Positions 3,001 through 42,766 of a stretch of DNA of 64,000 bases are shown one piece after another. The stretch is from Microthyrium microscopicum (Eukaryota): assembly GCA_010405405.1 (NCBI GenBank), contig MU004237.1, positions 534,191 to 598,190 of the forward strand. The letters are read 5' to 3'. The notes below the pieces were generated by a model. The model was not told the DNA's origin and made no database searches. It worked only from the letters and a program-made list of their open reading frames with translations. Both the position numbers and the translations under genes were made by a program. How positions within the stretch are numbered: the first letter of the stretch is position 1; each line of letters opens with the position of its first letter.

Positions 3001-5041
3001 CTACCGAAGCATAGAAAGGCCGGAATTGGTAACGCAGAACAGACCAGGTCTTGTTCTGCCCAACGATGGGGTCAGCTTACCAACGAAGGGTCTCAGGAAA
3101 GACGGCACACGCGTCACCCCAAGTGTCGACTCATACTGTTCTACTAACACTAATCGCGAGGCTCAGTTGCGACCCTGAAGTTGACAAGAATGGTAGAAAG
3201 CCAGACTCTGGTGCAAGGATGGTGGTAAAAAGTTGGCGGGGTGTCTTGTGCGACGCAAGTGTTTTTTGGAACCGGGACAGAGCGGAATGTATTGTCAGAT
3301 GGGCACTTTTGAAGGGAGCATAAGATGGGGGAATTGTAGATGGAGACTGGGGAGGGGATGGCAAATGCACCAATCGACCATGTTTCTGATGCACGATCGA
3401 GAATGGTATGGTGGGCGTAATAGCGCCATCAGGCTCCATGGTGTCAGGCTTTATTGGCTTAGAGATCGAGCATACTTCTAACTTGGCGTAGAGGATGGAG
3501 TAGTTCAAGGGAGGCCTCGCCCAGAACCCGCATATACATAGCATTGATGGGATTGGCTTGGCCCTGCAGGCGACAGATTTGCTTCCAGCACAACATGTCT
3601 TTTTGATGTTGCACTGGGATTACAAGGTTCAATACATTTTTGCCGGCTGGGTAGTGGTTGATCGATGCATTTCTCTTACCATTTGGGTGGTTGAGAACAC
3701 GACATTTGATGGGTCCTCTTTGGAGCTTCGCACGCTTCGCAGGCTGTCGCAAAACGTTTTTGACATGTGAAGTTGGCGCAGCACAAAGATTTTAGTAGCG
3801 TGGCCTGTATCAGTGTGGGCAAGGTGCAAGGCAGCCAGTTGGGCGCGCAAGAGGAAGTGATAGTGAAGGATGGAGTTGGCTTGATAGGTGTAGGTTCCAA
3901 GGATAGGTGAGTACATACAACAATGTTCAGACACAAAGTATCGCGCCGTTTGACCTGCGTTGCTTAGTCGGTGCTGGTTCATCAGATCCATGATGGTTGT
4001 GTTATTAAAAGCACCAATTATGGGTGCTTAGACAGCCTATCCTTGCTGGCCGCGAGGCTGGATGTTGTTGTACTTCCAACGACAAAATTTGAAATAGTGC
4101 TTTTCTTTTTCATATCGTTGAATCTGTTGCTTAGAGCTTGCAGTACTGTAGCAGATGTTGTTGGCTATAGAATTATTAAAGTATGATCATCCTCAAGAGT
4201 CAAGTGGCGATGATGACCGTTGTAGTTGATGGGAACACCAACCTGACAAGCACGCTAGAAAAGGTATCAGGCTGGATTGTACAGAACTAGCCCCCAAAAA
4301 GCTTAGTGCGGCGCAAGGGTGGCTCTTGCCCCAGCTAGCATCGCAACTGCCAAGCGTGTGCAGTGCGACTTCCCTTTCAGACAGGACGACTCCTGCGCTC
4401 TCGCTCAAACTCACCATCGTCAAGTTGGTCCATCCAATTCAGAGCTCCACACCATCTCAAATCCAACCCCCGCTCTCTACAACAATATTTCCAATTCTTT
4501 CTCCACCTCCTACTCTACGAATTGCCCATTTGGTCTCATCGCCCAGCCTATTCTCCCCGCTTTTGCCCGTCGAAACTTGGAAGCGTTTGCCTCTATCCAT
4601 CCCTTTACGTCTGCCTAGTGCACCTCCTCCACCATAATACTTCGGCGACTACACTTCCCGTTCAGACTACATCGCAAGCCACCACCTCCATCTCAAACTG
4701 TCTTGATTCCTCTTTGCTGTTCAGGTCACTCTGCTCGTGCGCCTGCTGTTCGAGACATAGTAGTACACAACCGGCGTCCTTATTTCTCCGCTGTGGACCT
4801 TGCAGCGATATCCGCTACTGCACCGCGCCCGCACAATCTTGAGTAACAAGGGTTTGAGCTTGTTGCCAACCTCTACCGGAGGCCTGGAATCTACTTGGCC
4901 TTGAAAGGCGACTATCATATCTGGCTGCCTATCGCAAGGCTCCCTTTCCTGTTGGCTTGACAGCCGTACTACACCTGTCATTGTTTGGCCATATCATTTC
5001 CCTTGATCGCTGCATCACATTACTCCTCGACTTCTATACCA

Positions 5042-37653: not shown

Positions 37654-39309
37654 CTATGCTGAGCTCGCCGGCGCAGGTGTCTGTCCACCAGCAGCAGCAT
37701 TACCGCCCCGTCCGCGTCCTCGTCCTCTAAATCCCCGTCCTCCTCTCGTGGTCTCTCCATCCTTTCCACCTCGCCCACCACCCCGAGCACTATCACCAGC
37801 CGCCGCCGCACCCACTCTAGCCGCTCCACCTCCACGCGGTGCGCGCTCCTTATACTCGCTGACTAACACTGTTCCCTTTGCAACATCAACTTTGCCCTTG
37901 GCAATAGCCGCCGCAAGTCCAGTCGATTCGGCAAAGTCCGCGTACGCGATACCCTTGCGCTTGTCGATTTCTACGTGCGTTACAGAGCCGAATGCTTCCA
38001 GTGCGGTGCGGAGGACTTCTTCGGTGATGCCTTGGGAGGGGTTGGCGTGTTTGAGGAAGGCGCGACGACCTGCTGGCGCGGATACGGTGGGTATTGTCGA
38101 AGCTGTAGCTGGTGTGGTAGGAGTGGTCGTTGATGTAGAAGCAGCAGGAGGAGCTACCGATGGCGGTTTTGCTATGGTAGGAGGTTTTTTGAGGATGGTT
38201 AGTGGTGGTTTAGGCGGATCGTCAGTCTTTGGAGGGTCTGCTTTTGTGTTCTTTGATGGGCGACGATCGCGAGCGCGTCGCTCGGGACGGGGAGATCGTG
38301 TTTGCTCGGAGGTCTCTGGAGTTGATGTTTCAGAGGCCGAGTCGTGCTTAGGTGTGGTGACAGTAGTAGAAGCGGTGTTTTCGTTGCCAGCTTTCGGACC
38401 ACGTCCTCGTCTACTTGAAGGTCCGAGTCCCAGATCCCGCTGTATTTTGGCCGCCAAGTCGAAGTTAGCGACAGGTCGCTCCTTTCGACGTTCTGACCGC
38501 GTTGAAGTAGCTGGAGACGGAGAGGCCTTTTCAGAAGTTTGACTTGAAGCTGCAGAAGCCGAGCTAGCTTGTCGGTTGAGGACTTTGACTGCTTCCTTTG
38601 CGGCCCGGTCTGGCTTGGTCAGTTTCTTTGTCTTTTCCGGTGATGATAATGATGTTTCGCCTTTGCCTTTTCGTTTCTTACCACTATCTCGCTCTTTGGA
38701 CTTGGCTCCTGGCTTCTCCTGACGGGCCTTCTTCTCACGGATGTGCTCTATAAGCGGTGTAGTAGTGATTTTATCTTCCTTGTGTGGTTCTAGCTCCGCG
38801 TGTGGTTTGGATAGAGGATTCGTGAGACTTTCCAAAAATTGGATGAACTCCGGATCCTGATCAATGGTCCCTTGACGAGCATCCCGTCTCTTCCTTGAAG
38901 CCGGGACTCTGTTGAATGGTGCAAATTCGACAGATGGAGGTGCAACAAAGACATTATCAGAGGTTCTCATCACGTTTTCAGGATCGACGAAATTAGCAGC
39001 CTGCACTGCTTCCGACAAGGCAGCAACATGGACTTTATCGGTGAGGTTCATGTAGACTCGAGTTTGTCGAGCATGCTTGGTACGATCCTTGGACGGTTTG
39101 CCTTCCCGATAGTTGATCCAGTCCACTCTTCCGGCACCAACTTTCCATTCTGGTCCGATCATTTTTTCAAACTCTGATATTGGCATGCCAGGAGGAAGGC
39201 GGCGGATAACTACTTTAAGACGCGGTTGATTTGCTCGCTTGCTTGGAGGTTTGGTGGGTGCCGCAGGCCCAGTCGTTACGGTGGCGAGGTTTATGATACC
39301 GTTAGACAT
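37654..39309 (-). CDS. UPF3: Nonsense-mediated decay factor Upf3 (Smg-4/UPF3 domain, C-terminal RRM-like region and RGG tail)
   Basis: RLKVVIRRLPPG...VDWINYREGK...PPSVEFAPFNRVP...DARQGTIDQDPEFIQFLESL...TTPLIEHIREKK is the fungal Upf3 signature. Intronless; first ATG at 39309 (the ORF track start is a TTG). Confidence 0.9.
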   Translation of the reverse strand: MSNGIINLATVTTGPAAPTKPPSKRANQPRLKVVIRRLPPGMPISEFEKMIGPEWKVGAGRVDWINYREGKPSKDRTKHARQTRVYMNLTDKVHVAALSEAVQAANFVDPENVMRTSDNVFVAPPSVEFAPFNRVPASRKRRDARQGTIDQDPEFIQFLESLTNPLSKPHAELEPHKEDKITTTPLIEHIREKKARQEKPGAKSKERDSGKKRKGKGETSLSSPEKTKKLTKPDRAAKEAVKVLNRQASSASAASSQTSEKASPSPATSTRSERRKERPVANFDLAAKIQRDLGLGPSSRRGRGPKAGNENTASTTVTTPKHDSASETSTPETSEQTRSPRPERRARDRRPSKNTKADPPKTDDPPKPPLTILKKPPTIAKPPSVAPPAASTSTTTPTTPATASTIPTVSAPAGRRAFLKHANPSQGITEEVLRTALEAFGSVTHVEIDKRKGIAYADFAESTGLAAAIAKGKVDVAKGTVLVSEYKERAPRGGGAARVGAAAAGDSARGGGRGGKDGETTRGGRGFRGRGRGRGGNAAAGGQTPAPASSA

Positions 39310-40039
39310 GGTAGTGGTTAATGACAAGAGTCAAGACTAGAGTTTGGTTGGGTATATTAATTGATAGTGGATGTTCTTCAAACAAGCGGAAGTGTGGTGA
39401 GTTAGATGGTGAGGTATTGTAGCAGTGATATGGTCAACTAGGCCGAGAAGTCCCGGCGCCGCAGAGGATGAATCGACTTAGATGCCGTTTTAGGAAAGTG
39501 TAGGTAAGGTGTTGGTGGGAAGGAGGTTTCCAGGTCTCCCGATCAGTTCCTGCTCTTTATACCATAGTCAATGAGGTGTTTGAATCTTCCAAACAGCGGT
39601 CTTGCCTTTTTGACGAAATTCTACCAAGATCTAGGTTTTGTTGGACCTGATATAGCTGATCTGGGTCCCTTAATGAAGAAAGAGACACTCAAGCTTGGTT
39701 TGCCCTAGCCCTAGATATACGGTACGTCCACATGGCTATTGCCGCAACCGCCGACTTGCACTGCGTCTAGATGCACCGTGAGATGGCAATCTTCAAACTC
39801 ATTTCTGATCCTCCAGCAACTCGAAACACCCTTCTGTAATACTCTTTATTTTTTCGCTCTACCCGCATCACCGAGACGCCCCACTACTCATCTCCATTTC
39901 AAACCATCTTGGAGCTTTCGACACCAGCTCTTTCCGCCTATCTCCCACCACCAACCCCTATACAACCCGTAATACTAATCACTCCACCCCACGATACCTC
40001 TCAAAGGCACTATCTGTCCTCGGAACACTTTGATACACC

Positions 40040-41537
40040 ATGACGAAAGATTCGGACGTTCCACAACCCGGCCCGGCGCGATTAAGCAAGGGCGCAGGCC
40101 CGGATGAATGGCTAGAGCAAGCAAAGCAATGCAAATATCTCCCCGAGGCTGATATGAAGCGATTATGCGAAATTGTAAAGGAGTGCCTCATGGAAGGTTA
40201 GTAGCCGTCCACTTGGATCTGCGCATTGGTTTGATTTGTCATCTAATCACTTGCGGCTACAGAATCAAACATACAACCCGTACAAACACCCGTAACAATA
40301 TGCGGCGACATCCACGGCCAATTCTACGATCTTCTCGAACTCTTTCGCGTCGCTGGCGGCATGCCGGATAACCGGCCGCCGGTTGAACCCGTCAAGCCAA
40401 AGTCATCAGTCATAAACGCAGCAGATCTGGAACCACCGAGCACGATAACGGATCCCAAGGCCAGGCGGAAGATGAAGCGCCGATTTCAGAGCGATACAAA
40501 CTATACTGGTCCGTCACCAGGTGAAGATGAAGATGGCGAAGAGGTTGAAGACGAAGACGATGAAGAAGCCACACGAGGCAGAAGTCGTAGTATACAAAGC
40601 AAGAAGAGCACAGAGTCACAAAATAGCGATGATGTGGAAGTCGTAGGACCAGATGGCGTGTCATCTAGCGGTACGATTGGACGGCAGAACTATATATTCC
40701 TTGGCGATTTCGTGGATCGAGGATACTTCAGTTTAGAGACGTTCACACTATTGATGTGTCTCAAAGCAAAGTACGTCCGTCACGACTTTGATAAGTATTG
40801 ACAGCTAACATTTCATGCAGGTATCCGGAACGAGTAACACTAGTCCGCGGCAACCATGAATCGAGACAAATCACCCAAGTCTACGGGTTCTACGAAGAGT
40901 GTCAAACGAAGTACGGCAATGCATCTGTATGGAAAGCATGCTGTCAAGTTTTTGATTTCCTCACATTAGCTGCCGTAATCGACGGCAAAATTCTCTGTGT
41001 GCATGGCGGTCTCAGTCCAGAGATTCGTACACTCGACCAAATACGAGTGGTGGCGAGAGCACAAGAAATACCTCATGAGGGTGCTTTTTGCGACTTGGTG
41101 TGGAGTGATCCGGAAGATATTGACACTTGGAGCATATCACCCCGAGGCGCTGGCTGGCTTTTTGGAGAGAAGGTCGCGATGGAGGTAAGGTTCACCGTAC
41201 ACTCCACCGTCCTCGTTAGCTAACTATCCCAGTTCAACCATGTCAATGGCCTACAACTCATTGCTCGAGCTCATCAACTCGTCAACGAAGGATATAAAGT
41301 CAGTAGCGTCGAATCAGCCACATTCTACAATGCTAACGTATCCAGTACCACTTCAAAGATAAAGATGTCGTCACAGTCTGGTCCGCTCCAAACTACTGCT
41401 ACCGCTGCGGCAACGTCGCCTCCATCATGTCACTAGGAGAAGACCTCGACCCAAAATTCACAATCTTCTCCGCCGTTCCCGAGAATCGCCGCGCCGTTCC
41501 TCCAGGTCGCAACACGCGCGGTGACTACTTCTTGTAG
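40040..41537 (+). CDS. SIT4: PP6/Sit4 serine/threonine protein phosphatase catalytic subunit
   Basis: GPDEWLE...[87 protein letters not shown] and terminal GDYFL*. Four introns; closely matches the Sit4 sequence pattern. Confidence 0.95.
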
Positions 41538-42509
41538 CCCAGGAAACGTACCACTCCCGCCGCTCCCTCTGCTCCAGCGACCACCACACCGACCAGTTCG
41601 GGAACTCGTGGTGCAACTAGCAGCGCAGGCACTGGGTCGATCAACAAGATGCTTGGTGACTTATTTGGCGATCCTGCTGCTGCAGACGACAATGACGACA
41701 CGCCAGCAGCTGATGAGGACGCTTTCAGCCACGCCAAATCCAACTCTTCGCCCTTCATATTCTCACCCGGGAGCCACTTCCTTTAATTACCAAGTAACCG
41801 CGACGGATTCTCAGTCATCAAGCACCCAGGCGTCGAGCTTCCTAGTCGTTGGTCCTTGTCCGGTGGGCTTTAGCCGTTGGGATTCCGTAGCTGTAAATGA
41901 TTTTGTTCTCCAAGACTTTGTACATTACTTCTTCCATTCACGACGCAATAACATGTACTAGTGTGTGGCTTAATTTGCGCGGACTTATTCATGATTGTTG
42001 CATATGATGGCTCATGGGTTTAGAACTTGTTGTGTGTTCTCATGGCAAGCATGATTAGTATGATTGCTATAGAATGATTACCTTTTGACTACACTTTGTT
42101 CTGTGCCTGGAGCTTCTCACTTTCCACTAATCATGTAATAGGATAAGCGTGTAAACTATGTACTCTATGTTAGTAGTGACTGTGTGATTCAGAGTCTGCA
42201 AGTCAGGAGCTCACCATGGCGCCGTCCTAGATTTGCAGGTCTTGAACTTTATATCGCATTTTCGAAAAAAGATATCAGCCACTCAACCTCAATTGCAACG
42301 CTTGTAACATCAATCAATCGAAGGAATCAAAGGTGAAGAACCACCCGGCACTTTTTTAATCGAAAAAGAGCCAGCATCGACATATAAACCAGCAATAAGA
42401 CTATATCTCCACAACCACCGCCTAGAAACTTTTACCAAAAAAACGACAGCCGTTTTTCAGGCATTCTTTAACCCTGAAACAATAAAAATTCCTAAAAAGG
42501 AAAATGCAA

Positions 42510-42766
42510 AAAAGAAGTCGCCCATCAAAACTCCAACCACAGTACCACAACCAAGACTGTATTCCAATACCGCCACCCCACAGCAAAAGACTCTCTGCTC
42601 GATTACTCGACTGAAGTGTATCTTTCAGTGCTTAGGGACGCCTTGCATCGTGGGTTGCCCACACGAGAAGGCTGTCCTTTGCAGGGTTCGAACCGGGCAA
42701 TCATTGGTCGAAAGATTGGTAATGAAATTGAATGGAGAAAAGCTCCTTCAAAACCATGACAGCAAG
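42510..42766 (-). ncRNA. Signal recognition particle RNA (7SL/SCR1-like, Pol III)
   Basis: Minus strand begins with a fungal Alu-like GCUGUCAUGG, has an internal B box GGTTCGAACC (42685-42694), a helix-6 stem with GCAA tetraloop (CGUGUGG-GCAA-CCCACG) and the helix-8 SRP54 motif CAGU-CGA-GUAA-UCG-AGCAG, and ends at a T6 run (42508-42513). ~255 nt, with a TATA-like element ~28 nt upstream. Confidence 0.88.

Follow-up and report, generated by a model that had tools for sequence, protein, structure and literature searches.

A coding-like in-frame stretch behind the stop of a fungal phosphatase gene of the PP6/SIT4 type and its possible translation as a conditional C-terminal tail

Few regulatory tails are known to be as conserved as the YFL end of the PP2A-family phosphatases, whose terminal leucine is the methylation site. 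The PP6/SIT4-type phosphatase gene found in the 64,000-nucleotide (nt) stretch of Microthyrium microscopicum DNA analysed here (the window) raises the question of whether such an enzyme can possess a second C-terminus, hidden behind its stop codon. In this gene the canonical frame ends in GDYFL and a TAG, and then stays open for 82 further sense codons which again end in Phe-Leu (GSHFL), followed by a TAA. The original prediction had placed the two stop codons and the peptide between them exactly (Table 1), and had read the stretch as the disordered tail of a long isoform, reached by readthrough, by editing of the stop, or through an alternative 3′ splice site. The 3′ untranslated region (UTR) of this gene is strongly coding-like over its first ~200 nt, with the character of true coding-type sequence in the frame of the phosphatase. 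It is plausible that the stretch is translated and that ribosomes have a route past the stop; a minor or condition-dependent extended PP6 isoform, produced by ribosomes passing the UAG, is the reading favoured here, with a probability of roughly 40%.

The coding character of the stretch was scored with a codon table trained on the 13 long open reading frames (ORFs) of the window. In the frame that continues SIT4 (frame 0), the codon log-likelihood ratio amounts to 0.27 bits per codon, which is above that of SIT4 exon 5 itself. No other stop-to-stop ORF of 60-150 codons in the window, of which there are 341 in all, scores as high. This score was matched by none of 1500 open dinucleotide shuffles and none of 1500 open mononucleotide shuffles and, once stop codons were excluded from the model, by none of the 25,043 windows lying outside ORFs of at least 100 codons. 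The post-stop regions of all 13 training ORFs score negative, and their G+C content (GC) is 0.38-0.48 versus 0.58 for the stretch. Expressed as a z score against shuffles, the codon signal reaches 4.4 in frame 0 and is negative in frames 1 (-1.3) and 2 (-2.4). This pattern of one positive and two negative frames resembles that of true genes, in which in-frame windows have a mean z of 2.97 (standard deviation, sd, 1.99) and the +1 frame a mean of -1.36. The calibration of z comprised 906 tests on non-coding windows (mean 0.06, sd 1.04, maximum 3.18), none of which reaches 4.4. A species-independent measure, the periodicity of RNY codons (purine, any base, pyrimidine), gives a fraction of 0.45 (z=4.2) in frame 0, the other two frames having 0.12 and 0.22. 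The earlier impression that these codons read like real coding sequence is therefore borne out, in the SIT4 frame only.

Both halves of the stretch contribute to the signal, with z=2.26 for codons 1-38 and z=3.81 for codons 39-82, and the predicted 82-residue tail is rich in Ala, Ser, Thr, Pro, Asp, and Gly. Tandem or triplet repeats were rejected as a cause of the periodicity, the only such repeat being a 9-nt unit present 2.4 times at 41554-41575, and the region additionally holds one weak inverted repeat. A duplication of exon 5, which could have been the origin of the second xFL end, was likewise rejected: the local protein alignment score of 21 is lower than the shuffle mean of 24.9, and neither the DNA comparison (p=0.41) nor a comparison restricted to the tail (p=0.17) supports it.

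An open frame of 82 codons is, by itself, ordinary. At the local GC of 0.58 the stretch is open in 7.7% of mononucleotide and 13.4% of dinucleotide shuffles, and two further frames are open in the same place, one of 174 codons on the plus strand (41437-41961) and one of 85 codons on the minus strand (41525-41782). Of 80 metagenome loci encoding the SIT4 C-terminus, the 32 that ranked best were compared as orthologous loci (L001-L033 minus L023, which was left out as its match ends early; L034-L080 did not enter this comparison). Their post-stop in-frame lengths range from 0 to 134 codons and reach at least 50 codons in 8 of the 32, the longest being the identical 134-codon extensions of L005 and L007. 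The Phe-Leu ending, a feature chosen post hoc, is shared by 18 of the 4569 ORFs in the window (0.4%). The single-genome codon and RNY test, in turn, clearly sets the stretch apart from ordinary long post-stop frames, and the RNY z of 30 orthologous post-stop regions runs from -2.0 to +2.0.

Two side observations concern the same set of 32 loci. Their SIT4 stop codon is TAG in 19, TGA in 7, and TAA in 6, counts which are not independent, many of the loci being interrelated. The only other locus hinting at a coding-like tail is L029, a distant orthologue with an acid-rich post-stop frame of 65 codons (2597-2791, GC 0.64) and a borderline RNY z of 1.96.

The gene preceding the stretch belongs to the PP2A-like phosphatases, subfamily PP6/SIT4/Ppe1. 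Its model, derived from the sequence, consists of five exons encoding 428 amino acids (aa), and is supported by a 1985-nt transcript contig that aligns to 39816-42011 with 0 mismatches and skips exactly four GT..AG introns. The Pfam family PF00149 (Metallophos, calcineurin-like metallophosphoesterase) is recognised in two exons, exon 2 with E=1.5e-7 and exon 3 with E=5.5e-23, and the top database relatives are annotated PP6, ppe1, or SIT4 proteins from Dothideomycetes, with 60-68% identity across exon 2, a figure that takes in a variable insert. This charged, acid-rich stretch of ~100 residues (~40360-40690), which we take to be an insert relative to canonical PP6, separates the metal-binding motif GDIHGQ from the motif GDFVDRG; the Dothideomycete orthologues (413-426 aa) are similar in length to the phosphatase described here. 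Within it, a 33-nt acidic repeat at 40522-40554 matches an unrelated abundant contig. The YFL end is found at the same position in 88 of the 120 orthologues listed, the remaining 32 being metagenome or assembly gene calls without any [DE]YFL, whose printed ends look truncated or intron-reading. Reassignment of TAG to a sense codon was ruled out, as TAG closes 6 of the 13 long ORFs and ORFs of up to 1389 codons run without it. No tRNA genes were found in the window.

The same spliced contig continues through the stretch and ends at 42011, that is, 474 nt beyond the TAG and 225 nt beyond the TAA, so the mRNA reaches at least this position. Polyadenylation ahead of 41786, which had been named as an outcome that would speak against the extension, is thus not what the contig shows. 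The transcript evidence consists of a single consensus contig from one assembled transcriptome run, in which minor edited or spliced forms are invisible; the contigs are uninformative on strand and transcript ends, and leave 42023-42426 without cover.

According to the favoured reading, the main product would remain the canonical 428-aa enzyme with its GDYFL end. A small or conditional fraction of ribosomes would pass the UAG, either by near-cognate decoding of UAG-C or after a stage-specific UAG-to-UIG editing, and the outcome would be a PP6 isoform with an acidic, probably disordered tail of 82 residues. Its terminal Phe-Leu could act as a second methylatable leucine, or the tail could be destabilising, as are the stop-loss extensions of Fusarium. 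A translated tail is favoured because the signal starts within ~15 nt of the stop and in the SIT4 frame, and because no extra coincidences are needed; the Phe-Leu end may be explained by it only if a function is involved. A more elaborate version, in which a Dothideomycete PP6/SIT4 has a conditional isoform that bypasses the UAG and carries a disordered tail restoring Phe-Leu, so that the enzyme alternates between two methylatable C-termini, appears decidedly doubtful.

A considerable number of results weigh against a translated tail, which has neither a supported mechanism nor conservation on its side. Some of them come from the stretch itself. The last 16 codons, GSHFL included, show no coding signal (z=0.19). 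Synonymous-codon choice is, if anything, slightly under the gene average (-0.024 vs 0.040, sd 0.055), in a test without power; the signal is one of codon and amino-acid type (Ala, Thr, Ser, Pro, Gly, Asp) rather than of codon bias. In human cells, loss of methylation left PP6 holoenzymes unaffected (PMC8630191). The functional rationale is weaker for PP6 than for PP2A, and the report on human cells, together with the lack of signal in the last 16 codons, weakens the idea of a second methylation site. The assembled transcript, for its part, keeps the TAG (A at 41536) and contains only the canonical junction 41298->41346.

The relatives point in the same direction. An extension past YFL is absent from all 120 listed database orthologues, and among the orthologous loci 31 have a post-stop extension, one codon or longer, of which none ends in Phe-Leu or is similar to the stretch. 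In L001, the closest relative, whose last exon is 89% identical, the TAA is directly followed by a TGA, leaving no extension. At the distances available, the orthologous loci therefore offer no codon-level conservation and no retained Phe-Leu, which is what the original prediction had proposed to look for. Neither tblastn (best E for the tail 5.6) nor blastn found the tail or the UTR in the 80 fetched loci. As far as the available relatives show, the tail is lineage-specific; even in the most conserved exon the nearest locus reaches no more than 89% identity, and a genus-level feature would be compatible with this absence. Homologues of the tail were equally elusive elsewhere. A phmmer search against 1.84 billion representatives returned a single match, P0121 (2052 aa), rejected as a homologue because its eight weak matches (39-45% identity over ~31 residues) fall on a repeat and add up to a chance likeness; the repeat presumably is of a type resembling the ankyrin repeat. 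A word-based search of longer proteins gave 0 matches among 2055 candidates, no Pfam family was found in the tail at E up to 10, and the ESM Atlas yielded no usable match, negatives that carry little weight, as the species and its close kin seem to be missing from the searched libraries.

For the three proposed routes past the stop (readthrough, editing, and an alternative acceptor) no positive evidence was obtained. One type of leaky stop is a UAG followed by CARYYA. The context here is UAG CCC AGG, with the C after the TAG that had been pointed out earlier, and is neither of this type nor the leaky fungal UGA-CU. The latter is the known efficient context for readthrough in fungi, and substitution of UAG for UGA there reduced readthrough (PMC4207609). 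No stimulatory RNA structure was found downstream either, the 126 nt at 41535-41660 folding worse than shuffles (z=+1.04). Editing fares better at the level of sequence preference: the UAG, in the context TTG TAG CCC, has the U at -1 and the G at +1 preferred by fungal A-to-I editing, of which UAG is the preferred target (PMC11156358), and stop-loss editing sites number hundreds in Fusarium and Neurospora (PMC11156358, PMC13123824). The edited A would not lie in a hairpin loop, since the minimum-energy fold places it in the 3′ arm of a 4-bp stem, weak evidence given that the local fold is itself weak and no better than shuffles (z=-0.17). This kind of editing has been reported only in Sordariomycetes and one Pezizomycete (Pyronema), and was not found in Aspergillus nidulans or Botrytis cinerea (PMC11156358). 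In the parts of the literature available, no report was found of A-to-I mRNA editing in Dothideomycetes, the class of the closest gene relatives. Among 403 stop-loss genes of F. graminearum (supplement of PMC13123824), a search by words met no gene named SIT4, PP6, PPE1, or serine/threonine phosphatase; some rows of this list are nameless and could include the Fusarium SIT4 orthologue.

The third route is at the same time a rival explanation, in which the donor at 41299 (or the one at 41185) would be joined to the AG at 41536-37, giving a protein made of exons 1-4 and the tail. The phase-0 donor at 41299 is real, as the contig contains its junction with 41346, and the phase arithmetic behind the proposal is correct: exon 4 ends at 41298, both sides are in phase 0, the intron would have GT..AG ends, the frame would be preserved, and a pyrimidine-rich run precedes the acceptor. 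All four real introns, however, carry a CTRAY branch site 13-20 nt from the acceptor, and none is present in the 42 nt upstream of 41537. The intron would measure 239 nt versus 47-66 nt for the real ones, its product would lack the final 63 residues of the catalytic part of the enzyme, a conserved segment whose loss would probably prevent folding, and the assembled transcript shows only the canonical junction, minor forms being invisible in a contig. This splice variant is thus very improbable. Nor did a scan for in-frame introns removing the stop find any candidate with both a good donor and a branch site, its multiple-of-three filter being valid for donors in exon 5 only and the 41299 donor being judged by hand and by the branch-site check upstream of 41537. 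Another way to use the coding-like sequence without passing the stop would be an independent downstream ORF, in which the only ATG of the stretch, at codon 39, would open a 44-codon peptide, made from the SIT4 3′ UTR after reinitiation or else from a short transcript of its own. The stronger signal in the second half of the stretch and the A at -3 of this ATG are consistent with it, but the ATG-less codons 1-38 are coding-like too (p ~0.01), the frame shared with SIT4 would be a coincidence, and the peptide has no homologue. Reinitiation after an ORF of 428 codons is, besides, inefficient, and there is little probability in this alternative. An equally modest one attaches to chance, in which case the 3′ UTR would be ordinary and GC-rich, and its openness, its composition, and its Phe-Leu end would be coincidences picked out from among many genes. 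The 8-13% openness expected from composition, the two other open frames, the common occurrence of long post-stop frames among orthologues, the post hoc choice of the ending, and the lack of conservation and of homologues all suit this view. Composition nevertheless fails to explain a frame-specific signal that was equalled in none of the open shuffles, null tests, or windows, and which sits in the one of three frames that continues SIT4; given the calibrated z and this choice of frame, pure chance is hard to sustain.

More serious, if still somewhat unlikely, is the idea that the stretch is an untranslated relic. A rearrangement would have swapped the 3′ UTR of SIT4 for the 3′ end of another gene, landing in frame and still open today; the captured piece would comprise the C-terminal, disordered coding part of that gene with its own UTR and terminator, and would serve as the 3′ UTR of SIT4. 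This would account for a coding signature that is lineage-specific and of which the 30 orthologous post-stop regions give no sign, for a stop bypass devoid of any supported route, and for a transcript that spans 474 nt past the TAG but just 225 nt past the TAA. The 3′ flank has indeed been rearranged. The gene for the RNA of the signal recognition particle (SRP) lies 970 nt downstream of SIT4 on the minus strand, while in L001 it lies ~370 nt downstream on the plus strand (~3030-3340), and at least 11 loci keep the upstream neighbour in synteny. One lineage has therefore undergone an inversion that broke the DNA somewhere between the two genes, SIT4 and that of the SRP RNA, which makes the capture of foreign coding sequence into the 3′ UTR credible. 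A further hint is a possible switch of frame. Past ~41740 the signal of frame 0 is lost, and the last 74 codons of the 174-codon frame +1 ORF, which extends 175 nt past the stretch and is open to 41961, are weakly coding-like (codon z=2.4, RNY z=1.25, 6.4% probability of openness), the same frame having z=-1.8 within the 82-codon stretch; a decaying fragment with one indel would give such a switch. The support is weak, as shown by the low RNY z and by the 1.9% of null tests that reach z=2.4, and the frame +1 tail (41740-41958) has neither a Pfam family nor a homologue. A relic also requires three coincidences, namely a breakpoint within ~15-20 nt of the stop, a junction that happens to be in frame (1 in 3), and the Phe-Leu end (0.4%). 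Moreover, no parent gene or homologue was detected with phmmer, two word-based searches, Pfam, or the Atlas, an argument that is itself weak since close kin are seemingly not in the libraries.

Table 1. Coordinates of the features of the SIT4 locus, given as positions in the window.
Feature	Position	Strand	Basis
PP6/SIT4-type phosphatase gene	40040-41537	+	spliced contig, Pfam Metallophos, annotated relatives
PP6/SIT4 exons	40040-40196, 40263-40770, 40821-41184, 41233-41298, 41346-41537	+	sequence and spliced contig
Canonical stop TAG, preceded by GDYFL and followed by CCC	41535-41537	+	sequence; TAG also in assembled transcript
82-codon in-frame open stretch, ending in GSHFL	41538-41783	+	sequence, codon z=4.4, RNY z=4.2
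TAA closing the in-frame stretch	41784-41786	+	sequence
Core of the coding-like signal	~41550-41740	+	sliding windows; codons 1-66 z=4.39, codons 67-82 z=0.19
Sole in-frame ATG of the stretch (codon 39); would open the putative 44-codon downstream ORF	41652-41654	+	
Rest of the 3′ UTR under the transcript contig; GC drops from ~0.54 to 0.37	41787-42011	+	
174-codon open frame, frame +1; only its tail 41740-41961 weakly coding-like	41437-41961	+	
Fungal SRP RNA gene	42508-42765	-	Rfam RF01502 Fungi_SRP, 111 bits, E=2e-26, full length
Upstream neighbour, 558-codon ORF	37657-39330	-	tblastx, synteny with SIT4 in 11 or more metagenome loci

Among the neighbouring features, the SRP RNA gene is covered by a separate transcript contig from 42525 on. 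A protein gene entering the region from the minus strand was considered and rejected, since the conserved downstream element is this RNA gene and the open minus frame across the region contains no Pfam family. On the other side of the phosphatase, the 5′ leader is C-rich, with a GC skew as low as -0.65, and at 39809-40030 of the plus strand it has 74 open codons in the frame of SIT4, up to a TGA (40031-33) two codons ahead of the ATG. The codon z of this open leader is only 1.7, without a coding signature.

Should the tail be translated, the burial of YFL under 82 residues together with a new Phe-Leu end would constitute a new regulatory switch of PP6. The locus would be a test case for recoding, whether by readthrough or by editing, in a fungal class without documented cases and, if editing is the route, stop-loss editing would for the first time be reported from beyond the Sordariomycetes and Pezizomycetes. 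The PP2A family, too, would gain its first recoded C-terminus, no report of such a case having been found in the literature searched on SIT4 and readthrough. If, on the other hand, the stretch is a relic, the rearrangement would have set a finished piece of coding sequence in frame after a stop codon, as raw material for a later C-terminal extension.

The HFL end of the stretch is presumably not a peroxisomal targeting signal type 1 (PTS1) of the SKL type. The peroxisomal readthrough isoforms of fungi and animals (PMC4207609) are nevertheless comparable in that a hidden in-frame extension adds a new C-terminal signal. They arise at the context UGA-CU(A G) and have a short extension, whereas here the context is UAG-CC and the extension 82 aa long, and unlike in those cases neither context nor tail is conserved across species. 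The readthrough extensions of Drosophila and mammals (PMC3840789, PMC4132726) share with the stretch a coding signature that continues in frame beyond the stop; there the signature consists of codon substitution patterns across species, while here it consists of codon usage and RNY periodicity in a single genome. The canonical YFL end corresponds to the carboxymethylated C-terminal leucine of PP2A, PP4, and PP6 (PMC8630191), and the putative tail again ends in Phe-Leu. This GSHFL end would lie 82 residues beyond YFL and, unlike for the terminal leucine of PP2A, PP4, and PP6, its methylation is hypothetical.

The closest parallels are perhaps to be found in stop-loss editing of Fusarium graminearum, where FgDBF2, FgMOB1, and FgCDC14 present the same combination of a UAG with a U before the A in the gene of a conserved signalling enzyme. 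The differences are several. The Fusarium extensions of these three genes measure 11-27 aa (PMC13123824) versus 82 here, their UAG lies in a hairpin loop versus a paired A in a weak fold, and their editing was established by RNA-seq, whereas the sole assembled transcript of the present gene carries the A. The lineage, furthermore, is Dothideomycete-like and without reported editing, as opposed to the Sordariomycetes. In kind, fungal stop-loss extensions are long, disordered, and compositionally biased (PMC13123824), and the tail predicted behind the SIT4 stop is like those of the Sordariomycetes, which are long, compositionally biased, and probably disordered, and whose primary sequence is not conserved.

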